NCBI GenBank assembly: GCA_030654835.1
Contig: JAURWS010000044.1
Coordinates: 4,964-68,963, forward strand
Source: Gammaproteobacteria bacterium
Lineage (GTDB): Bacteria > Pseudomonadota > Gammaproteobacteria > Pseudomonadales > Pseudohongiellaceae
Direction of reading: 5' to 3'
Length of the DNA: 64,000 bases
Below the pieces are notes generated by a model. It was not told the origin of the DNA. It saw only the letters and a program-made list of their open reading frames with translations, and ran no database searches. Each line of letters opens with the position of its first letter. Position 1 is the first letter of the stretch. Below, in pieces: positions 16,355-62,271 of the stretch. Both the position numbers and the translations under genes were made by a program.

Positions 16355-18816
16355 TGCTGGACAAAGTCAAACACTGCTTCTGCTACCACTGCCGCGCGCT
16401 GATGCCGACAGCCACCGCCCTGACGCTTGAGGTGGACGGGCATACTCGCCTGTTGTGCTGCTCGGGCTGCATGGCCGCCGTGCAATTCATCAACGCGTTG
16501 GACCTGCAGTCCTACTACGATTTTCGTGACAAATGCGCGCCCGTCGCCGGACTGACGGCGCACGCCGCTGGCGCCGGACAGACACTTCCGGAGTTGGCCT
16601 TCGCCGATGCCATCGAGGAGTTAGCGGACGGACGCCGGGCATTGCGCCTGCTGATTCCAGACCTGCGCTGCGCCGCCTGTGTCTGGCTGCTGGAACAGGT
16701 GTTGGGCCGCCAGCGTGGCGTCGAGCAGGTGCAGGTCAGCTTCGCCTCGCGGCGCCTGCGGGTTGAGTTCAACCCGGCCGAAGGCACGTCCGTGCCCGCG
16801 ATCGCACATCTAGTGCAACGCCTTGGCTATCAGCCCGAGCCGGATCTGCCCGATGCAGGCAGGCAGAGTTTCGCCAGCCATCAGCGCAACATGCTGATCC
16901 GTCTGGGCGTGGCTGGCATCGGCATGATGCCAGTGATGATGTTCGCGCTCCCGGCGTACCTGGCAGGTGGCGCAGCCGAGGTTGCATCAGCAAGTAACGC
17001 AGCGGCGATGGACCCCCTTAGCGCGGCGCTGTTGCGCTGGGCCAGCCTCGCCCTCAGCACCCCCGTAGTGCTCTACAGCGCCTTTCCATTCCACCGGGGC
17101 GCCTGGTACGCGCTGCGTCATCGCAGCCTGAGCACGGACTTGCCGGTGTCTATTGCCATTCTGGCAGCCTTCCTGCTGAGCGTGGTCAACACTTTGAATC
17201 AGGTGAGCGAGGTATACTTCGACACGGCCTGCATGTTCACGTTTTTCCTGTTGCTGGGTCGCTATGCTGAATTGCAGTCCCGGCGCCACTTCCAAGAGAG
17301 TCAGGATCTCATGTCGAAGCTGCTGCCGCTGACCGTGCGACGGGTGAACAGCAGCAACGAGGAAACCGTCCCGCTGCGGGACGTCGACGTCGGCGACCTG
17401 CTGCGCGTGCTTCCCGGAGAGACGATTCCTGCCGATGGCGTCGTCGTGAGTGGCCGCAGCAGCGTCAGCGACAGCGCCTTTACCGGCGAGCCGCTGCCCA
17501 GCGTCCGGCAGCCCGGCGCACGGGTGCTGGCGGGCGCCACCAATCACGACGGCGAACTCGTGATCCGCGCCCGCACGCAACCGCAGGACTTTGTGCTGGC
17601 ACAGATCAACCGCCTGTTCGAGCAGGCCTCCCAATACCGTCCACACTGGTCCCGCCTCGCGGACCGGGCAGCGTCCTGGTTCATCGGTGCCGTGCTTGTA
17701 CTCGCAGCTGCGGCCGGCATTTTCTGGGAACTGCGCGGTGCGGACAACGCGCTGATCATCGCCCTGACCGTGCTGGTGGTGGCTTGCCCTTGTGCGCTGT
17801 CGCTGGCGACCCCAGTCGCCAGCACCGTTGCCACCACCACACTGCGTCGACGTGGTGTGGTCATTCGCAACGGAGCCTTCCTTGAGCGGGCGGCGGCGAC
17901 CACCGCCGTGGTCTTTGACAAGACCGGCACGCTCACCGAGGCCCAGCTCCACATCGACAGGATCGTGCCGCTGCATACGCTGGACACGCAGGCCTGCCTC
18001 GCCATCGCGACCGCGCTGGAGCGCCACAGTCATCACCCGATCGCCCGCGCCTTTGCCTGTGACACGGCGCTGACTGCCAGTGCCGTAGTGACGGTGCCAG
18101 GCCAAGGCGTCGAGGGCGAGATAGCAGGCGTTCACTACCGCCTCGGCATAGTCGGCTTCGCATGGCCAAATATCGGCAGCCGCAGCACCACTCTCTCACC
18201 GCCCGAGCAGGATGATGGCCTGTGGGTACTCCTGGCCGCCGAGACACCACTGGCTTGGTTCCGGCTGCAGGATGTCCTGCGCGACGACGCCGCGCAAACC
18301 GTAGACGCCCTGCGGAAACAAGGCATCACCACGGCCATTTTCAGCGGCGACTCGTCAGTGGCGGGTCGACACCTGGCCGAGACACTGCGTGTGGACCAGT
18401 TGCGCACCGGCCTGACTCCTGAACAGAAGATTGCCGCCGTGCGGGCGCTGAACGCCGGGACACCTGTCGGCGGACAGCGGGTCATGATGATCGGGGACGG
18501 TGTCAATGACGCGGGGGCCATGGCGGCCGCAGACACCTCCATCGCCATCTCCCCGCGCGACGTGCTGGTGCAGAACAGTGCCGATGCGACCTTGCTCAAC
18601 CCGAACCTCACCCTGGTGCCGGACGTTCTGCGCTTCGCCAGACGCACGCGCCGCATCATCCGCCAGAACATCGGCTGGTCGCTGGCCTACAATCTGAGCG
18701 TGATTCCCGTGGCGCTGCTCGGCCTGCTGCCTCCGTGGCTCGCCGCGCTCGGCATGAGCCTGTCATCGCTGCTGGTGGTCATGAACGCCTGGCGTCTGCG
18801 TCGGATGGAGGACTGA
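16354..18816 (+). CDS. ccoI: copper-translocating P-type ATPase (FixI/CcoI)
   Basis: CPC TM motif, DKTGTLT phosphorylation site and GDGVNDA hinge. 820 aa. Confidence 0.92.
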   Translation: MLDKVKHCFCYHCRALMPTATALTLEVDGHTRLLCCSGCMAAVQFINALDLQSYYDFRDKCAPVAGLTAHAAGAGQTLPELAFADAIEELADGRRALRLLIPDLRCAACVWLLEQVLGRQRGVEQVQVSFASRRLRVEFNPAEGTSVPAIAHLVQRLGYQPEPDLPDAGRQSFASHQRNMLIRLGVAGIGMMPVMMFALPAYLAGGAAEVASASNAAAMDPLSAALLRWASLALSTPVVLYSAFPFHRGAWYALRHRSLSTDLPVSIAILAAFLLSVVNTLNQVSEVYFDTACMFTFFLLLGRYAELQSRRHFQESQDLMSKLLPLTVRRVNSSNEETVPLRDVDVGDLLRVLPGETIPADGVVVSGRSSVSDSAFTGEPLPSVRQPGARVLAGATNHDGELVIRARTQPQDFVLAQINRLFEQASQYRPHWSRLADRAASWFIGAVLVLAAAAGIFWELRGADNALIIALTVLVVACPCALSLATPVASTVATTTLRRRGVVIRNGAFLERAAATTAVVFDKTGTLTEAQLHIDRIVPLHTLDTQACLAIATALERHSHHPIARAFACDTALTASAVVTVPGQGVEGEIAGVHYRLGIVGFAWPNIGSRSTTLSPPEQDDGLWVLLAAETPLAWFRLQDVLRDDAAQTVDALRKQGITTAIFSGDSSVAGRHLAETLRVDQLRTGLTPEQKIAAVRALNAGTPVGGQRVMMIGDGVNDAGAMAAADTSIAISPRDVLVQNSADATLLNPNLTLVPDVLRFARRTRRIIRQNIGWSLAYNLSVIPVALLGLLPPWLAALGMSLSSLLVVMNAWRLRRMED

Positions 18817-18819
18817 GCC

Positions 18820-19068
18820 ATGGAGACCTTCCTCATATTGATCCCCGTCACCCTCGCGCTGGTCGCGCTGTCACTGTGGGCCTTCGTGTGGTCCGCCCGC
18901 AACGGACAGTTTGAAGATATTGATCGGCAGGCCTGGTCCATCCTATTCGACAATACCGAGGAGGAGCAAAAACAGGAGTTGCAAAAGGAGAGGCATGAGG
19001 AAGCGCGCCAAGACATTGAAGCAGGGGCGCCACTGGATGAGGCCGAGCGCGACGGCGGGATGCACTGA
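18820..19068 (+). CDS. ccoS: cbb3 oxidase maturation protein
   Basis: 82-aa protein, METFLILIPVTLALVALSLWAFVWSARNGQFED.., typical of FixS/CcoS. Confidence 0.85.
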   Translation: METFLILIPVTLALVALSLWAFVWSARNGQFEDIDRQAWSILFDNTEEEQKQELQKERHEEARQDIEAGAPLDEAERDGGMH

Positions 19069-54273: not shown

Positions 54274-55851
54274 TCAGGCGCTGGCCGACTCGGCACGCAC
54301 GCGCTGATCCAGCTCGGCAAGCGCCACGTGCGCCGCCTGCATGGCGCTTTCCATCCATGCCGTGTGCTTGCTGACCTGATCGCCGATCAGCCAGTAGCGG
54401 CCGTTGACGGAGTGCTGCAGGGTGCTGAATATCTGCTCCTCCTCCGGCGTCACGACATTCCAGCGTGCGGAGCAGCCGAGCATGTGGTTCATACGGTGCC
54501 AGGCGATGGTCACACCCTTCTCGACCATGCTGCGGTAATTCGAATGCACCTTCTCACCTTGAACAATCATTGCCTCAATGCGCTGTTCATGAGTCATGCG
54601 GGTGAAGGCCATGCCATTGCCATAGTCGTAAGCGGCAAGCACCACGCCCTTGGCCTTGTGAATGCCGTGCGGCGGGTACCAGATCTGACGGATCGGCTGA
54701 TTGGTCCAACTGATGCCGCCGTAGATGCCTTCCTTCTCCCAGAAGCGCTCTTTCCCCTGGAACGCGCCCTTGTAAGCGGTGCCTCGGCGGATGTACTTCA
54801 TCGCCTGGGTGTACTCGGTAGGCAGGTTGTTCGGGATGCCATTCATGAAGTGGCTGGGAATGGAGTTGAAGCAATAGTCGGCCTCGATGAGCTGACGCTG
54901 CCCGTCCTGCTGATATTCCACCGACACGCCATCATCGCGCAGGTTCAGCGACAACACCTGTGCCTTGTACTTGATCCTGGAGTCCAGCTGACGGGCAAAA
55001 CCTGCGGGAATCCTGTCCATGCCACCGACAGGCTGCATCAACATCGGGCCTGTTTCGCCTTCATTGTCGCTGATCACCTGGCGGACGGCATTCGCGCGCA
55101 GCAGGTTGCGAACGTCGATCATTTCCTTCTGCACCGTGTGAGTGACATAGTTGCCCGAGGCATAACCGGCGCGGTTGCTGCCCGTGTAGCGTCCCTCCGC
55201 ATTGAGGTCACCGAAGGCATGGATCATCTGCAGCACCAATTCCGCCTCTTCATCGGTAAAGGGCTTGTCGAGCTCAACCTCGGACATGGCCTTGTTCATC
55301 AGCTCTGCCATGAAGCCGCGCACGTTGGTGGTGAGCTCGGCATTGCGGATGGGCTTGCCACCCATAATATTGTCGTCCTGAATCCAGGCCATCTTGTTTT
55401 CGTTGATGAACAGCTCCAGGTCCACCCCCAGCTCTTTGCAGTAGTGCAGGACGTTGGTGTGCGTGCTGGGAATGCGGGCCGCACCGGCATTGAAGTACAT
55501 GTGCGGTTCATCGTCGAACTGGCAATACTGAGGGTTGCCGATCTCATCGATCAGGGTGCCGGCACGGACGGTGAAGACACGGCCACCGGCACGATGGGAA
55601 GACTCCAGCACGGTGCAGTCGTAACCCGCCTTGGTGAGTTCGTAAGCCACCGTCAGCCCGGAGATACCGGCACCGAGAATGACTGCTTTGCGATTCTGAT
55701 TGCTCAAACGCAACAATTCGGGAGCCGACGCGGAAGCGCTGGAGGGGATCATGCCAAGCGCGCTGGTAATACCGATGACGGCAGCCGTGCCGCCAGTAGC
55801 GGCCAGCAGATTCAGAAACTCACGACGGGAAACGGGATTTGACACTTGCAT
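54274..55851 (-). CDS. Tat-exported flavin amine oxidase family protein
   Basis: Twin-arginine signal SRREFLNLLAATGGTAAVIG. FAD dinucleotide fold VILGAGISGLTVAYEL..VLESSHRAGGR. Confidence 0.85.
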   Translation of the reverse strand: MQVSNPVSRREFLNLLAATGGTAAVIGITSALGMIPSSASASAPELLRLSNQNRKAVILGAGISGLTVAYELTKAGYDCTVLESSHRAGGRVFTVRAGTLIDEIGNPQYCQFDDEPHMYFNAGAARIPSTHTNVLHYCKELGVDLELFINENKMAWIQDDNIMGGKPIRNAELTTNVRGFMAELMNKAMSEVELDKPFTDEEAELVLQMIHAFGDLNAEGRYTGSNRAGYASGNYVTHTVQKEMIDVRNLLRANAVRQVISDNEGETGPMLMQPVGGMDRIPAGFARQLDSRIKYKAQVLSLNLRDDGVSVEYQQDGQRQLIEADYCFNSIPSHFMNGIPNNLPTEYTQAMKYIRRGTAYKGAFQGKERFWEKEGIYGGISWTNQPIRQIWYPPHGIHKAKGVVLAAYDYGNGMAFTRMTHEQRIEAMIVQGEKVHSNYRSMVEKGVTIAWHRMNHMLGCSARWNVVTPEEEQIFSTLQHSVNGRYWLIGDQVSKHTAWMESAMQAAHVALAELDQRVRAESASA

Positions 55852-55930
55852 GATCCTCTTTGACTATTGGTGCTGAATACCCTCTTCAATCCAGGGTGTG
55901 AAGACGAGTGAATTATTGCGATCGAGGCCG

Positions 55931-55966
55931 GGAAAGTCCTCCCAAAATCCTTCTGAAAACCTCCTA
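55931..55966 (-). promoter_or_regulatory. conserved box A upstream of the amine oxidase gene
   Basis: In gene orientation it reads taGGAGGttttcaGAAGGattttgGGAGGac. Three pentamers are spaced 11 bp apart, and the box is near-identical to box B. Confidence 0.55.
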
Positions 55967-56092
55967 AAGAATGGCTCTCGGCCTCGGGAGGATACTTTGC
56001 GCCACTTTGCCCCCCTCCCTTGACCTCTCCAACGTTCTGATATCTACTTGAGGCCGATTTCCAGCAAATATGCTCGATCATTTTCAACCCGG

Positions 56093-58186
56093 ATGAGACA
56101 GCCAGTGGCCTCGGACAAGCTAAACAGAATAAAGATCGGAGATTGGGAGGCATCGCTCACTACTTGCACCCTGATTCAGGGCGGCACCGAGGTGAAAGTG
56201 ACCCCCCGCAGCATGGACGTTCTCCATTACCTTGCAGAACAGGCAGGCGAGGTGGTCAGTCACGAGGAATTGCTCAATCGCTTCTGGCAGGGTTCGTTTC
56301 CATCCGATCATGCCGTCCACAAGGCCATCGCGGAACTGCGTAGCGCCCTCGGGGACGATGCTCACAATCCTACTTATATAAGGACAATCCCCAAGCGCGG
56401 CTACTCGCTGATCGCCGAGGTAGTGGTGGCCACTCCCATCACAGCTCCGCAAGCGGTTTCCGAGAAAAACCCGGCGGGGGAAGTCACCCAGGTCTCTCCA
56501 TTGAAGCTGCGCTTCAGCGCACTGCTGGACAAACGTATCATGGCCGCCGGGGCGGCCGCAGCCATCTTCCTGTCCGTGCTCATGTGGCCTGGCCAGCAGG
56601 TGTCCAGCGGCAAGGACGAGGTCGTGCGCCTCGCCGTACTGCCCTTCGTGGACCTTGAACCAAGTGCCGATAACAAATTCGTAACGGACGGACTGCGCGA
56701 ATCACTGGTGCATGGCCTTTCAAAACTCAGCCACCTGGAGGTCTTGTCCCCCTCACGCGGGCTCGATGGGGCGGAAGACAATCGTTCTGCGGAACGGGCC
56801 ATCGAACGCGCCCAGACCCTGAACGCCGATCATGTGTTGCAGGGCAGCGTGCAGTCGGCCGAGGGACGCCTGCGCGTGACGGTCCAGCTCATCCGCGCCA
56901 GTGATGGTCTTCATCAATATTCCGACCAATTTGATTTCCCGATAGAAGATCTATTTGGCGTGCAGGACCAAATCGTCTCCAACGTGGTCAGCGCCCTGAG
57001 CATTCACCTCGATGAAGAAGAGCGTTCGCAGATGCTCGACTGGGGCACCACCAACGCACTGGCCTACGAGAAATTCCTGCGCGGAGAGTTCTACTACAAC
57101 CAGTTCAGCCCTGCCGACTTCCAGCGCGCTATCGACTATCACCTCGCCGCCATTGAACTGGACCCCGAATTCCTCAACGCCTACCACGGCGCTGCCACGG
57201 CCGCCAACAACCTGGCGGTGTACAGCAGTGATGCCAGGATAGAGGAGCTGAGCCTGCTGATCGCCAACATTCACCGCGAAGTCTCGCGCATTGCGCCAGA
57301 CAGTCAGGTGCTAAGGTCTCTCAATGAAATACGTCTGCGCATGGGCGGCAACAACCAGATTCAGCAGGAAATGCAGATGCGCGAGCAGATTCTCACCGGC
57401 AATCCGCCGGAGTTCGCAGTCGCCCACTACGCGCTGTTCCTGATTGGCGCAAGGCTGTATGACGAGGCCAGCAGACTGCTCGACGCCGCCGGCGAAGTCG
57501 GCCCCTTCGAGATTTCTCCCGACGAAGTCTGGAGCTACCGCAACAACATTCAACCACCGCGCGCCATGCTGCTCGGTGCCAAAGGTCAGCTGCAGGAGCG
57601 CCCCTATCACGTCGGTTTCCTGGGAACGGTAGCAACCAACTCTGCACTGACTGGTGATTTCCGCCAAGCCGAGACCTATCTGAACCGTCAACGTGAAGTG
57701 GATACCGACGGCATCCTCGCTCATTACAGCGAGACCATCATCGGCTTCCTGAGCGGCAAAATCTCATTAGGCAATGAGGCCTACCAGGACATCATGAGCC
57801 GGGAAGGGGATTTCGCCTTCAACAAGGGCGCTCTCAGTTTCATGCTGGGTGATGTCGAGACGGGCATCACTCTGTGGCGCAACCTGACGGCGACCCAGAA
57901 GCGCCGGTTGTTCAACGTCACGCACGGCGCGGAGAAATACTTTCCGGTCTCCGTGCTGGAAGACCCCCGTTACCGGGCCCTGCTGGAAGAGCTGGGGCTT
58001 GGCAAGAGCTGGCAGCGTCAGCTCATGGAGGGGATCATGGCGACGGAGTCTGTCACCGGCGTAGGGCTGAGCGAAAAGTCTCGTCAGGCCTACGAGAGCA
58101 ACACCTTTCTTTCCCGCAATAACCTCTGGACCCCCGAACAGTGGTCCGAGCTGGATTCCCGCAAGCTGGCCATCCTGCAGCACTGA
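56093..58186 (+). CDS. membrane-anchored CadC/ToxR-like winged-helix regulator with periplasmic TPR-like domain
   Basis: OmpR/PhoB-type DNA-binding domain (..VKVTPRSMDVLHYL..IRTIPKRGYSL..). One TM helix (AAGAAAAIFLSVLMW). Then ..LAVLPFVDLE.. and a long helical-repeat region. The start is at 56093 (ATG) or 56048 (TTG). Confidence 0.8.
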   Translation: MRQPVASDKLNRIKIGDWEASLTTCTLIQGGTEVKVTPRSMDVLHYLAEQAGEVVSHEELLNRFWQGSFPSDHAVHKAIAELRSALGDDAHNPTYIRTIPKRGYSLIAEVVVATPITAPQAVSEKNPAGEVTQVSPLKLRFSALLDKRIMAAGAAAAIFLSVLMWPGQQVSSGKDEVVRLAVLPFVDLEPSADNKFVTDGLRESLVHGLSKLSHLEVLSPSRGLDGAEDNRSAERAIERAQTLNADHVLQGSVQSAEGRLRVTVQLIRASDGLHQYSDQFDFPIEDLFGVQDQIVSNVVSALSIHLDEEERSQMLDWGTTNALAYEKFLRGEFYYNQFSPADFQRAIDYHLAAIELDPEFLNAYHGAATAANNLAVYSSDARIEELSLLIANIHREVSRIAPDSQVLRSLNEIRLRMGGNNQIQQEMQMREQILTGNPPEFAVAHYALFLIGARLYDEASRLLDAAGEVGPFEISPDEVWSYRNNIQPPRAMLLGAKGQLQERPYHVGFLGTVATNSALTGDFRQAETYLNRQREVDTDGILAHYSETIIGFLSGKISLGNEAYQDIMSREGDFAFNKGALSFMLGDVETGITLWRNLTATQKRRLFNVTHGAEKYFPVSVLEDPRYRALLEELGLGKSWQRQLMEGIMATESVTGVGLSEKSRQAYESNTFLSRNNLWTPEQWSELDSRKLAILQH

Positions 58187-58298
58187 TCTTCAAGCTCTTG
58201 ACCCCAGGCTCCTTCTCAATTTCTGCATTTCATGATTCAGCAAGGCGCATAGCGCCCAACCCCTCTGCACGCCCGTGAATTGCCCCCTTCCAGAGTTA

Positions 58299-58335
58299 TA
58301 GGAGGTATTCAGAAGGTTTTGGGGAGGACTTCCCT
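58299..58335 (+). promoter_or_regulatory. conserved box B upstream of the TonB-dependent receptor gene
   Basis: taGGAGGtattcaGAAGGttttggGGAGGacttccct, with pentamers at 58301, 58312 and 58323 (11-bp phasing). Confidence 0.55.
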
Positions 58336-58508
58336 GCCCCCTCTCTCGATAATCGAAGGCGCTATCTGGTTGACTCACTTCACGACCCACTGGAGTTTAC
58401 AAAGCCCCTGCAAGTACCACCTTGCGTAGAAGGGCTGTCGTACAGGACTGAAGTAATTTAGAAACCATCCTTCGCAAATCTAGAAAATGAAGACAAGGGA
58501 ATAGAACT

Positions 58509-61052
58509 ATGAAAATTTCAAAACTGCTGACAATGTCGTCGGTTGCTGCCCTGCTGGGCTCAATCGCTGCCACCACCGCTCCCGTTGCCATGGCGCAAGC
58601 CCAGGGTCAGGATGCGGACATCGAAGAAGTTGTGGTAACCGGTTCACGCCGCGCACCCAGAACAGCGCTCGACTCCGCAGCTCCAGTCGACGTGTTCTCA
58701 GCAACAGACTTCCAGGATCAAGGCACGGCCGATATCAACGACCTGCTGCGCAACCTGGTGCCGACCTTCAACGTGGACACTCAGGACATCAACGACTCCA
58801 ACAGTCTGGTACGCCCCGCGACCCTGCGCGGCCTGCCCGCTGACGACACGCTGGTGCTCGTGAACGGCAAGCGCCGTCACCGCTCCGCAGCGGTGCAATT
58901 CGGTCGCGAGGGAACCCACTTCCCGGACATCGCCCAGATTCCTCCGATTGCTCTGCGTCAGGTCGAAGTGCTGCGAGACGGCTCTGCCGCACAGTACGGC
59001 TCCGACGCCATCGCGGGCGTGATCAACTTCATGCTCAAGGAGAACAGTGAAGGCCTGTCCATCGAAACCAAGACCGGCATGTACACCGAGACCGATGACG
59101 GTCAATTGAACTACATGGCCGCCAACCTGGGTCTGCCGCTGGGCGAAACCGGCTTTGCCAGCCTAAGCATGGACATGACCAACCAAAAGCGCAGCGACCG
59201 CAGCATTCAGCGCGGTGACGCACAGGCACTGATCAACGCTGGCAACAAAGCGGTACGTGTCAATGCCCAGCACCAGGGTCTGCCCGATACCGAGATCGTC
59301 AACCTATTCGCCAACATCGGCGTTGATCTGGGCGGCGACCAGACGCTGTACTCCTTCGGCGGCTACAGCGAGAAGGACGTTGAACTCGGCTTCTTCTACC
59401 GCAACCCGGAAAACCGCAGTGGGGTATTCACCCGTGGTTCCAATCAGCTTTTCATTGACACGACGCCCGGCACAGGCACGACCTGCCCGACCATCCCGCG
59501 CGGCGTCAACCCAGTGACCAAAGTCACCAGCTCTGTGGCAGCTGCCCAGGCAGGCCTGGCAGATCCGCAATGCTTTTCCTTCCTTGAGTGGTTCCCCGGT
59601 GGTTACACCCCAGACTTCGGCGGCCAGGTGCGCGACATGTCCAATGCCACCGGCATCAAGGGCGAGCTGGATGACGGCACGACGTATGACCTGAGCATGG
59701 GCAATGGCTTCTCGGAGATCACCTACTTCATCTCCAACACCACCAACCCATCCATGGGACCAGATTCTCCCACCAGCTTCTCGCCCGGTATCTACACCAC
59801 CATCGAGAACAACCTCAACCTGGACCTTTCCAAGGCTTTCGAAGTGGGTATGTACTCACCGCTCAACGTTGCCTACGGTCTGGAATGGCGTCGTGAGATA
59901 TTCAAAGTGGCTTCCAAGGACCAGGACTCCTACCGCGTTGGCCCCTATGCCAACCTGGGCATGGGCGTAGGCTCCGACGGCTTCCAGGGTTTCGGTCCTG
60001 ATCAGCAGGGCACCTGGGATCGCAAGAACTGGAGTATCTATGCCGACCTGGAAGTGGATGCCACCGAAAGACTGTTGCTCGGCGCTGCCATCCGCTACGA
60101 AGACTTCTACAACACCTTCGGCGACACGACCAATGGCAAGCTGACAGCACGCTATGCGCTGACAGACACGACCAATCTCCGCAGCACGATCAGCACCGGC
60201 TTCCGTGCTCCGTCACCCGGCCAGGCCAACATCTCCAACATCAGCACTGGTGTTGTGGACAGTATCCCTGTCACCCAGGGCCAGATTCCTCCCACCAACC
60301 CGATATCACAGCTGTTTGGTGGTACGGAGCTGACTCCGGAGAAATCCCGCAACTTCAGCATCGGTGTCGCCACCGAAATCGGCGGCCTGGACCTGACACT
60401 GGACTACTACCGCATCGAACTGCGTGACCGCATCCTGAACTCTGCAACCTTCGACATTACCGAAGCCATTGCACAGCAACTGGAAGCCTCCGGTATCTCT
60501 GGCGCACGCAGCATTGTGTCCTTCAACTACTACACGAACGACATGTCCACCACCAACGAGGGTGTTGAACTGGTTGGCTCGTATGCGATGGACTGGGACG
60601 ACTTCGGTCGCACCGAACTGGCGGCCTCATGGGCCTGGACCAAGCAGCAACTGGACAGCTTCACGCCAGGCCTGTTAACCCGCGCCAACGTCGCCGATCT
60701 GGAAAAAGGAATCCCTGCCAACCGTGGCAACTTCCGAGTCAACCACACGATCACTGACTGGCGCTTCACTCTGCAAGCCAACTACTACGACGAGTACTTC
60801 TCAGTCCCCGCCAACGCCAACCCAGCGCGCGATTACTGGGTAGGTTCGGAGGTGATCTTCGGTGGCGAGGCTGCTTACACGTTCCGTGATCGTTACACCT
60901 TCATTGTCGGTGCGGATAACATCCTCAACACCATGCCGGAGAAGATTCGTCCAATAGATATCAACTCAGGCACCAGCAACAAGTACGTCACGAACGCTGG
61001 GTTCGGCCCGAATGGTGCCTTCTGGTACGCACGCTTCCAGTTCAGTATGTAA
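58509..61052 (+). CDS. TonB-dependent receptor
   Basis: Signal peptide ..TAPVAMAQA, DIEEVVVTGSRR, plug ..LVNGKRR.., an 847-aa barrel and an aromatic C-terminus. Confidence 0.88.
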   Translation: MKISKLLTMSSVAALLGSIAATTAPVAMAQAQGQDADIEEVVVTGSRRAPRTALDSAAPVDVFSATDFQDQGTADINDLLRNLVPTFNVDTQDINDSNSLVRPATLRGLPADDTLVLVNGKRRHRSAAVQFGREGTHFPDIAQIPPIALRQVEVLRDGSAAQYGSDAIAGVINFMLKENSEGLSIETKTGMYTETDDGQLNYMAANLGLPLGETGFASLSMDMTNQKRSDRSIQRGDAQALINAGNKAVRVNAQHQGLPDTEIVNLFANIGVDLGGDQTLYSFGGYSEKDVELGFFYRNPENRSGVFTRGSNQLFIDTTPGTGTTCPTIPRGVNPVTKVTSSVAAAQAGLADPQCFSFLEWFPGGYTPDFGGQVRDMSNATGIKGELDDGTTYDLSMGNGFSEITYFISNTTNPSMGPDSPTSFSPGIYTTIENNLNLDLSKAFEVGMYSPLNVAYGLEWRREIFKVASKDQDSYRVGPYANLGMGVGSDGFQGFGPDQQGTWDRKNWSIYADLEVDATERLLLGAAIRYEDFYNTFGDTTNGKLTARYALTDTTNLRSTISTGFRAPSPGQANISNISTGVVDSIPVTQGQIPPTNPISQLFGGTELTPEKSRNFSIGVATEIGGLDLTLDYYRIELRDRILNSATFDITEAIAQQLEASGISGARSIVSFNYYTNDMSTTNEGVELVGSYAMDWDDFGRTELAASWAWTKQQLDSFTPGLLTRANVADLEKGIPANRGNFRVNHTITDWRFTLQANYYDEYFSVPANANPARDYWVGSEVIFGGEAAYTFRDRYTFIVGADNILNTMPEKIRPIDINSGTSNKYVTNAGFGPNGAFWYARFQFSM

Positions 61053-61107: not shown

Positions 61108-61125
61108 ACCCGGAGAACACATCTT

Positions 61126-61767
61126 ATGACGCGCAATGTTTTACCCATGCTGCGGGCCATTGCCGCAACAGCGGTAGTCTCAACCACAGTTTCAACCTCC
61201 ACATGGGCAGCCGTACCCCATGAGCCGGTCAACCACCGGTTCTGCTTCACCTGTCACGGCACCGATGGCGTTGGCAGCGAGGGCATCCAGGCCCCTCGTC
61301 TGGCTGGCATGGAGCCATGGTACCTGCAACGGCAGCTCGAACTGTTCCGTGCCGGGGGACGCGGCAAGCACGCGGAAGATATTCAAGGCATGGAGATGCA
61401 GCCAATGGCCGCAATCCTGACCGACGAGAATATCGCCGACATCATCGACTGGGCCGCCACCTGGGAGTACAAACCCACGGTTCCGACACTGACAACCGGC
61501 AATGCAGCCAACGGACGCCAGCTCTATCAGGCCTGCGCGACTTGCCACGGCGCGGATGCGCAAGGCAATGAGGCGATGAATGCGCCAGCACTGCGCGGCC
61601 AGAATGACTGGTACCTCGTCACTCAGCTGAAAAACTTCAAGGCCGGTTTCCGTGGCACCGACCCGCTCGACACGTTCGGTGCGCCGATGCGCGCGATGGC
61701 GGCAGGCCTTGCCGACGAGCAGGCAATCAAAGACGTCGTGAGCTATATCAATACGCTGGGACGTTAA
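61126..61767 (+). CDS. dihaem cytochrome c (c4-like), exported
   Basis: Signal peptide, two CxxCH motifs (CFTCHG, CATCHG) and two Met-containing distal segments. Confidence 0.8.
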   Translation: MTRNVLPMLRAIAATAVVSTTVSTSTWAAVPHEPVNHRFCFTCHGTDGVGSEGIQAPRLAGMEPWYLQRQLELFRAGGRGKHAEDIQGMEMQPMAAILTDENIADIIDWAATWEYKPTVPTLTTGNAANGRQLYQACATCHGADAQGNEAMNAPALRGQNDWYLVTQLKNFKAGFRGTDPLDTFGAPMRAMAAGLADEQAIKDVVSYINTLGR

Positions 61768-61794: not shown

Positions 61795-62271
61795 ATGTCG
61801 AAGCTCATCAAGTTATTGACTCTCAGCTCTGCCCTGCTGGCAGGGTCATTCGCCATGACAGCCAGCGCTCAGGAAATTCAGCGCGAGGGCGAAGGCAGAC
61901 TCTTCTACAGCACCATCAGCATTCCCGCCGGTGCGGAGACCTTGTACCTGAGTGGCGTTGGCGCTTCACCACAAGCCGATGGCACCTACGGTGACATGGA
62001 GCAGCAGACCAACAATACCTTCGAGAAGTTCAAAGCCACACTGGAAGCCCAGGGCTGGGCCATGTCCGACATCGTCCAGGTCCGCGTGTTTGGCGTGGCC
62101 GGTGCCGATGGCAAGTTTGATTTCGCTGGCTTCAATCGCGGCTACGAAAAATTCTTCGGCACCGAAGCCAATCCCATGAAGCCAGTGCGCTCTGTCGTAC
62201 AGATCGCCGGGCTGGTGGTAGAGGGCTGGCTGGTCGAGATCGAGATCCGCGCCGCCCGCGTTCCCAAATAA
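61795..62271 (+). CDS. RidA/YjgF-family protein with Sec signal peptide
   Basis: MSKLIKLLTLSSALLAGSFAMTASAQE.. signal peptide, followed by a YjgF/UK114-like core ending ..EGWLVEIEIRA. Confidence 0.75.
   Translation: MSKLIKLLTLSSALLAGSFAMTASAQEIQREGEGRLFYSTISIPAGAETLYLSGVGASPQADGTYGDMEQQTNNTFEKFKATLEAQGWAMSDIVQVRVFGVAGADGKFDFAGFNRGYEKFFGTEANPMKPVRSVVQIAGLVVEGWLVEIEIRAARVPK

Follow-up and report, generated by a model that had tools for sequence, protein, structure and literature searches.

The 64,000-nucleotide (nt) stretch of DNA analysed here, referred to below as the window, is taken from contig JAURWS010000044.1 (positions 4,964 to 68,963, forward strand) of a Gammaproteobacteria bacterium assembly, GCA_030654835.1, placed in the Pseudohongiellaceae. 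Within it, the gene for a transmembrane one-component regulator lies between a divergently oriented gene for an L-amino-acid-oxidase-like flavoprotein and an operon, running in the same direction as the regulator gene, for a TonB-dependent outer-membrane receptor, a cytochrome c and a RidA-family protein. An earlier reading of the window from its letters alone (the sequence-only reading) had called the first three genes an amine oxidase, a winged-helix regulator and a TonB receptor, and these assignments agree with the Pfam domains of the products. Our subject is a pair of G-rich boxes, one on either side of the regulator gene, which we regard as the probable operators of two promoters controlled by that regulator. 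The features discussed are collected in Table 1.

Table 1. Features of the regulator locus in the window, with pentamer arrays from distantly related loci for comparison
Feature	Position	Strand	Sequence, domain match or remark
L-amino-acid-oxidase-like flavin adenine dinucleotide (FAD) flavoprotein, Amino_oxidase family	54274-55851	minus	Pfam Amino_oxidase 2e-32
-10-like hexamer, oxidase side	55912-55917	minus	AATAAT, 20 nt past last pentamer of box 1
Box 1, putative operator of oxidase promoter	55933-55968	minus	TTTAGGAGGTTTTCAGAAGGATTTTGGGAGGACTTT
Box 1 pentamers	55960-55964, 55949-55953, 55938-55942	minus	three 11-base-pair (bp) units
Promoter-like island of regulator gene	56020-56048	plus	TTGACC, 17 nt, TCTACT
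Transmembrane one-component regulator, 697 residues	56093-58186	plus	Trans_reg_C 8e-19
Box 2, putative operator of receptor operon promoter	58297-58332	plus	TATAGGAGGTATTCAGAAGGTTTTGGGGAGGACTTC
Box 2 pentamers	58301-58305, 58312-58316, 58323-58327	plus	
-10-like hexamer, receptor side	58348-58353	plus	GATAAT, 20 nt past last pentamer of box 2
TonB-dependent outer-membrane receptor, receptor operon gene 1	58509-61052	plus	Pfam Plug + TonB_dep_Rec_b-barrel
Periplasmic dihaem cytochrome c, receptor operon gene 2	~61123-61767	plus	two CxxCH motifs
RidA-family imine deaminase with signal peptide, receptor operon gene 3	61795-62271	plus	Pfam Ribonuc_L-PSP 2e-17
Array at distant locus L113			AGGAGGAATAT GGGAGGCTTGC GGGAGGACTTT
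Array at distant locus L114			AGTAGGTTTTT AGGAGGCGAAA AGGAGGACTAG
Array at distant loci L090 and L093			GGTAGAAAAAT AGGAGGGGCGC AGGAGGACTTT
Array at distant locus L108			AGTAGGTTTTT AGGAGGTCGCC AGAAGGATTTT

Read toward the amine-oxidase gene, the minus strand at 55930-55966 is TAGGAGGTTTTCAGAAGGATTTTGGGAGGACTTTCCC, and the plus strand at 58299-58335 is TAGGAGGTATTCAGAAGGTTTTGGGGAGGACTTCCCT. The two had been counted as identical at about 33 of 37 positions; the near-identity is real, although the count is properly 32 of 37. Both boxes carry the pentamers GGAGG, GAAGG and GGAGG in that order, and the 11-bp spacing of their starts, as first read, proves exact by coordinates on both strands. The boxes lie on either side of the regulator gene as an inverted pair, each oriented outward, toward its target gene, and in an inverted-repeat search the likeness stretches to 55 nt at 80% (55912-55966 against 58299-58353).

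No further copy had been seen in the window, and none was found by either of two methods. A 33-nt pattern with up to three mismatches allowed gives exactly two sites, and the pattern GRAGG-N6-GRAGG-N6-GRAGG with at most one mismatch gives the same two alone, each against a shuffle expectation of 0.00. A weight matrix built from the orthologous sites described below scores box 1 at 63 bits and box 2 at 54 bits, with no third site of 8 bits or more anywhere in the window; the best of 20 shuffles reached 1.8. A second, weaker shared block had also been proposed (55891-55911 against 58376-58397), and this one we reject: its local alignment score of 16 was equalled by 382 of 2000 shuffles, its distance from the box is unequal on the two sides, and the copy on the oxidase side is kept among the closest relatives alone (regulator identity of about 92% and above).

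Orthologues of the regulator were found in uncultivated Gammaproteobacteria and in Pseudohongiella, at 92% to about 52% identity. Pseudohongiella nitratireducens (L012) is a cultured relative with the locus. The nearest contig, JAUSMU010000266.1, encodes a regulator 96%, an oxidase 98% and a receptor 100% identical to those of the window. Six distinct loci (L001-L007) were selected on protein identity and nothing else. In five of them the oxidase gene diverges from the regulator gene, which is followed by the receptor, cytochrome c and RidA genes. This layout is retained down to 57% regulator identity, including at one locus (L006) where the surrounding genes are different. The sixth, L007, has no receptor gene, and its box stands directly before the cytochrome c and RidA genes. 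Both boxes are present in all six. In this receptor-less variant (L007, L008 and L051; JAVVEG010000017.1) the -10 hexamer, too, directly precedes cytochrome c and RidA. Five loci with 64-73% regulator identity (L017, L030, L046, L048 and L050) come from metagenome-assembled genomes (MAGs) titled Klebsiella, labels that are probably wrong; Pseudohongiellaceae-like MAGs carry the locus in the same way.

The strict pentamer pattern misses three of these loci (L001-L003), where the middle repeat is GAAGA or GAATG, and an alignment-derived pattern was used instead. Phylogenetic footprinting of 58 distinct sites (27 on the oxidase side and 31 on the receptor side) delimits a near-invariant block of about 36 nt, tTTAGgAGGTwTTCaGAAggwTTTTrGGAGGACTTT, whose upstream flank is unconserved. 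Over 90 orthologous loci, with regulators as little as about 51% identical, show the block nearly unchanged. The formula G(G/A)AGG, which had been given for all three pentamers, holds in the window, whereas the middle one is degenerate in close orthologues, reading GAAGG, GAATG or GAAGA, with GAA alone invariant. A protein-seeded metagenome search returned 59 loci, 34 of them full-length orthologues (at least 51% identity) with both flanks present. In 33 of these 34 both boxes were found, the upstream one always toward the oxidase and the downstream one toward the receptor.

One genome per species, for 185,579 species, was scanned with the pattern AGKAGG-N5-RGAA-N4-TT-N-RGGARGAC, which carries 36 bits; about 17 chance matches are expected, as estimated from the information in the pattern and the size of the database. 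The scan gave 62 matches. Of these, 58 have a regulator orthologue beside them and directly precede a gene for the oxidase, the receptor or cytochrome c. There are at most two matches per genome, and no third match in any genome with the locus. The remaining four, in Rhodovulum, a Bacteroidales MAG, a Chloroflexia MAG and an archaeon, have no homologues of the locus genes nearby and look like chance. Apart from these strays in unrelated taxa, the whole-genome search confines the motif to the regulator locus. Rescanning the fetched DNA (542 kb) with the weight matrix recovered partner sites missed by the strict pattern and nothing else; among these was the oxidase-side box of Pseudohongiella, which has diverged to AGTAGGTTTTGGGAATCTTTCGGGCAGGACTTT. 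At Pseudohongiella-type loci (for example L015 at 7667, L040 at 2916, L077 at 3635), AGTAGGTTTTGGGAATCTTTCGGGCAGGACTTT lies 240-600 bp from the regulator gene, and the receptor-side box is near the consensus.

More distant relatives of the regulator, recovered in the same metagenome search, show which part of the block is kept longest. Some of these proteins are full-length and 45-46% identical to the regulator of the window; others have 231-318 residues and lack the TPR-like domain described below. Their operons are rearranged and divergent from the regulator gene, in the combinations receptor-oxidase, oxidase-cytochrome c-RidA and RidA-receptor. The intergenic regions nonetheless carry three pentamers in 11-bp phase, and the spacers are unrelated (Table 1). 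At the loci whose arrays have enough downstream sequence (L090, L093, L108 and L114), 20-21 nt follow and then an xAxxxT hexamer. Because three phased pentamers are kept while the spacers are not, the comparison shows the pentamers to be the conserved units of the predicted operator. The array-bearing distant regulators have in common the recognition helix (S/T)DHAVHKAI, and the sole sampled relative with another helix, FDHSLNISI (L103 and L104, two near-identical loci), has no array. The short regulators of L105-L114 keep the recognition helix and the membrane helix, together with GGAGG-type 11-bp arrays, and have no TPR-like domain; it seems that this regulator family swaps sensor domains and retains its operator.

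The sequence-only reading did not include the conserved -10-like hexamer that follows each box, and it is this hexamer that makes the boxes complete promoters of the activator type. In the orthologues it stands 20-21 nt after the last pentamer throughout, the intervening spacer of about 15 nt being fixed in length and free in sequence, and in the column profile of the 58 sites it reads aATAAT for oxidase-side boxes and gATAAT for those on the receptor side. The distance from box to start codon, by contrast, is anywhere between 61 and 370 nt. If -12 to -7 is taken as the position of the hexamer, the repeats would fall at about -60 to -50, -49 to -39 and -38 to -28, with the last GGAGG core at -37 to -33. 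Transcription of the oxidase gene is then predicted to start near 55905, with a leader of about 54 nt, and that of the receptor operon near 58360, with a leader of about 150 nt. At the -35 position stands AGGACT, which agrees with TTGACA at three of six positions, and a consensus scan found neither a canonical sigma-70 promoter nor a terminator at either box; the only promoter-like match is on the wrong strand, inside the start of the receptor gene. Since there is no usable -35 and no sigma-70 promoter at either box, the boxes and hexamers together have what is, judged from sequence, the anatomy of activator-dependent promoters.

We also noticed that the leader of the receptor operon (58354-58508) contains short stretches kept among the orthologues, for example AACCATCCTTCGCAAA at 58463-58478 and GCTATCTGGTTGACTCACTTC at 58366-58386. 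These hint at extra control, possibly post-transcriptional.

The regulator gene has a promoter-like island of its own, which lies about 52 nt past box 1 and about 45 nt ahead of the start codon. When 27 divergent intergenic regions are aligned, CTTGACC and CTACT show no variation, in contrast to the remainder. The island is probably the regulator's own promoter; given its poor fit to a sigma-70 -10, it may instead depend on another sigma factor or be a site of autoregulation.

The regulator itself, for which a conserved GTG at 56105 is an alternative start codon, has Trans_reg_C (residues 31-106) as its sole Pfam domain above threshold, and hydropathy gives a single hydrophobic 19-mer at residues 149-167. 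Its DNA-binding domain matches that of CadC (5JU7) with an E-value of about 1e-19 and about 34% identity, and ToxR with an E-value of about 1e-10. An AlphaFold2 model built on 45 orthologues (mean predicted local distance difference test score 81) predicts a winged helix at residues 12-112, a disordered linker at 114-146, a membrane helix at 147-164, and then an alpha/beta domain at 178-305 and an all-helical, TPR-like domain at 308-696. In Foldseek comparisons, the modelled winged helix superposes on CadC 5JU7 with a template-modelling (TM) score of 0.83 and on DNA-bound ToxR 8B4B with a TM score of 0.88 (range for ToxR 0.85-0.88), and the alpha/beta domain resembles the TolB N-domain and PelC. 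The periplasmic region matches that of CadC (3LY7-3LYA) weakly, with an E-value of about 1e-4, a TM score of 0.27 and a root-mean-square deviation of 16 A. The recognition helix (DHAVHKAI) does not vary among the 45 orthologues, where H73, V75, H76 and K77 are invariant.

This predicted architecture, with an N-terminal winged helix free of any receiver, a linker, one membrane helix and a periplasmic C-terminal domain, is that of the ToxR/CadC-like transmembrane one-component regulators, to which by its sequence we assign the protein. The regulator had been described as CadC-like, which is apt for its DNA-binding domain and overall topology; it does not belong to CadC itself, because it scores 108.5 bits against the NCBIfam CadC model NF007540, whose cut-off is 400, and only residues 13-120, the DNA-binding domain, align. 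CadC proper was also excluded on the grounds that cadBA is not adjacent and that the sites are G-rich direct repeats. A two-component response regulator of the PhoB/OmpR type was considered as well and excluded for want of a receiver domain, the Pfam search giving no Response_reg match and the winged helix beginning at about residue 12. The window holds no second gene for a winged helix of the OmpR/CadC type, and the regulator encoded between the boxes is, as the sequence-only reading had it, the only one nearby.

The repeat anatomy of the boxes, the fixed spacing to the -10 hexamer, the exclusive linkage of the boxes to the regulator and target genes, and the domain architecture of the regulator argue together for one interpretation, which we consider likely: that the boxes are the operators of two regulator-dependent promoters flanking the regulator gene, and that both are activated by tandem-bound winged-helix domains of the regulator. 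That 11-bp direct repeats might be sites for the regulator encoded between them had been suggested from the window, and the genome scan, the footprint and the distant relatives all lend support to it. Each operator would consist of the unit A-G-G/T-A-G-G plus 5 nt, a mostly T-rich tail, repeated three times and followed by about 15 nt and the -10 hexamer, with no recognisable -35. We infer that the regulator, anchored in the inner membrane, places its cytoplasmic winged helices head to tail on one face of the DNA, one on each repeat, and that the protomer nearest the promoter sits at the -35 position and recruits RNA polymerase. Expression would thereby be switched on in one direction for a twin-arginine translocation (Tat)-exported, L-amino-acid-oxidase-like flavoprotein and in the other for the TonB receptor, cytochrome c and RidA operon. 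Sensing of the imported substrate or its product presumably falls to the TolB-N-like and TPR-like domains in the periplasm.

Several points weigh against this interpretation or parts of it. There may be some read-through from the regulator gene into the receptor operon, since no terminator-like site was seen after the regulator gene. It is possible that two protomers bind rather than three, since the middle repeat is degenerate in close orthologues, and one distant locus, L088, has two repeats only. The recognition-helix peptide was among the seeds of the metagenome search, so the link between helix and box in the paralogues is not an independent sample. A scan with an exact pattern is blind to weak distal sites, and a purely local regulon therefore rests on the strong sites. 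Finally, a site overlapping the -35 could repress as well as activate.

The last point leads to the alternative that survives best, in which the regulator represses at the same sites, blocking RNA polymerase over the -35 until it is released by a ligand, or has a dual role that depends on occupancy. The proximal repeat does overlap the -35 position, and ToxR can repress or activate according to position and orientation (PMC12802830). However, the want of a usable -35 at both promoters is a hallmark of the need for an activator, and at every one of the more than 90 loci the repeats face the -10 in the same way, as is expected where an activator contacts the polymerase. We think it unlikely that the regulator acts here by repression.

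It is more improbable still that the protein bound at the boxes is a factor not linked to the locus, for instance a global regulator for nitrogen or carbon, and that the neighbouring regulator acts elsewhere or indirectly. The conserved promoter-like island of the regulator gene could be the regulator's real autoregulatory site. A global factor should, however, have other sites, and none was found in any genome bearing the locus; where gene order is rearranged or the genomic surroundings differ, the box stays with the regulator gene; it tracks the recognition helix; and 11-bp direct repeats suit the winged-helix family. That the boxes act as RNA, whether as decoy Shine-Dalgarno sequences or as leader sites of the CsrA/RsmA type, or that they are a dispersed generic repeat scattered over many unrelated loci, is very improbable: the pentamers do resemble ribosome-binding sites and contain GGA, and box 2 would be transcribed if there were read-through from the regulator gene, but the start codon stands at a variable distance (61-370 nt) and the -10 at a constant one, the predicted transcription start is downstream of box 1 and the sole gene further upstream runs the opposite way, no Rfam match was found in 55700-58700 at E-values up to 1, and none of the 185,579 species genomes has more than two copies, in every case at the one locus and flanking the regulator gene.

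One of the closest described counterparts is ToxR of Vibrio cholerae, likewise a transmembrane one-component regulator with an N-terminal winged helix of the OmpR/PhoB type, on whose DNA-bound structure the modelled domain superposes. At ompU a pair of ToxR protomers occupies tandem sites in direct orientation, at -49 to -42 and -40 to -35, and a loop phenylalanine contacts the alpha C-terminal domain of RNA polymerase; at toxT, ToxR and two TcpP molecules make a tandem of three winged-helix domains (PMC12802830). Repeats predicted to lie between -60 and -28 would fit the tandem geometry at both promoters. It is suggestive that F69 of the regulator lies in the same alpha2-alpha3 loop, one position after F69 of ToxR in a HMMER alignment. 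Unlike the regulator considered here, ToxR reads the shape of AT-tract DNA with few base contacts, whereas the present sites are G-rich, highly conserved pentamers. ToxR also has a small periplasmic domain and a partner, ToxS, while here there are about 520 periplasmic residues and no evident partner gene, and the many dispersed targets of ToxR contrast with the two gene-flanking promoters that alone were seen here.

Of the sequence matches to the DNA-binding domain the best is that of Escherichia coli CadC (5JU7), which acts at cadBA and shares the order of winged helix, linker, one membrane helix and periplasmic alpha/beta then helical domain. By analogy, both regulators may be said to stand beside an amino-acid-catabolic operon. 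The target genes are nevertheless unrelated, and beyond the aligning DNA-binding domain the periplasmic folds match weakly, as the low TM score given above indicates. CadC sites lie further upstream. They are, moreover, AT-rich, and Cad1 is quasi-palindromic (PMC5430869).

The pho box resembles the present boxes in having 11-bp direct repeats with a conserved core and an A/T-rich tail, and the PhoB-DNA structure 1GXP is among the Foldseek matches of the regulator. In pho boxes, as predicted here, the proximal repeat replaces a missing -35 upstream of a good -10. PhoB differs in being soluble; it is a response regulator that undergoes phosphorylation and makes contact with sigma region 4, whereas the regulator here is membrane-anchored and has no receiver, and pho boxes have two repeats as against three.

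We found no literature on this regulator family, on its operator, or on a locus combining a TonB receptor with an oxidase of this kind; the sole related cluster that we found is lao-cccA-ridA of Gluconacetobacter diazotrophicus. There, genes for an L-amino acid oxidase, a cytochrome c and RidA form a co-expressed cluster, and their products are proposed to act jointly, RidA by hydrolysing the oxidase's imine product and cytochrome c by taking electrons (PMC5053998). The same three types of enzyme are grouped at the present locus. The arrangement is different, however, with the oxidase gene divergent from those for cytochrome c and RidA and the TonB receptor gene at the head of the operon, and the paper describes no such regulator, operator or TonB receptor for its cluster (PMC5053998).

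This is not a new kind of system. It is a well-defined addition to the ToxR-like class, with an operator that is unusually sharp and G-rich and a regulon that appears confined to the two promoters flanking the regulator gene. It supplies a precise operator and a two-promoter regulon for ToxR/CadC-like membrane regulators that are uncharacterised and belong mostly to uncultivated Gammaproteobacteria. The well-characterised members of the class, ToxR and CadC, read AT-rich, loosely defined sites, and a G-rich, strictly phased site stands in contrast to these. A family with such a sharply conserved site and no more than two targets, both nearby, would be a clean model for the oligomerisation of membrane-tethered winged helices on DNA, for their contact with RNA polymerase and for the finding of targets. 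The link between a TonB receptor and the oxidase, cytochrome c and RidA module known from Gluconacetobacter suggests periplasmic catabolism of an imported amino compound.

A broader proposal, which we hold to be doubtful and put forward only tentatively, is that these loci represent a widespread type of nutrient-utilisation locus, not described before, in Pseudohongiellaceae-like freshwater and marine Gammaproteobacteria. An amino compound would be imported by way of TonB and deaminated wholly in the periplasm by the oxidase, cytochrome c and RidA, with the electrons passing to the respiratory chain and not to oxygen, and the DHAVHKAI regulator would bind the G-rich triple array as a homo-oligomeric tandem of three, its targets being those flanking its own gene alone. 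If this were true, such a placement of targets would solve the target-search problem of a membrane-bound transcription factor.

Turning to the target genes, the nearest solved relative of the oxidase is the L-amino acid oxidase of Rhodococcus opacus (2JAE, E-value 6e-75), and its N terminus carries the twin-arginine signal SRREFL. For cytochrome c, the listed open reading frame begins at 61012, within the end of the receptor gene; with orthologues of 208-217 residues and M38 as the first residue of the signal peptide, the true start is probably at 61123. Export is predicted for all three enzymes (oxidase, cytochrome c and RidA), and the pathway would therefore be periplasmic. FecA-type signalling through the receptor was considered and ruled out: the plug starts at residue 54, and there is no N-terminal extension.

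Beyond the conserved genes, a gamma-glutamyl transpeptidase gene follows the oxidase gene in some relatives (6358-8052 in L001 and L002). After RidA, a DUF481 gene and a gene with a Glu_synthase domain are found in L001-L005 (about 16400-18900). The window lacks all three genes at the corresponding positions. Such neighbours may be clues to the substrate, for example gamma-glutamyl or glutamate-related compounds.

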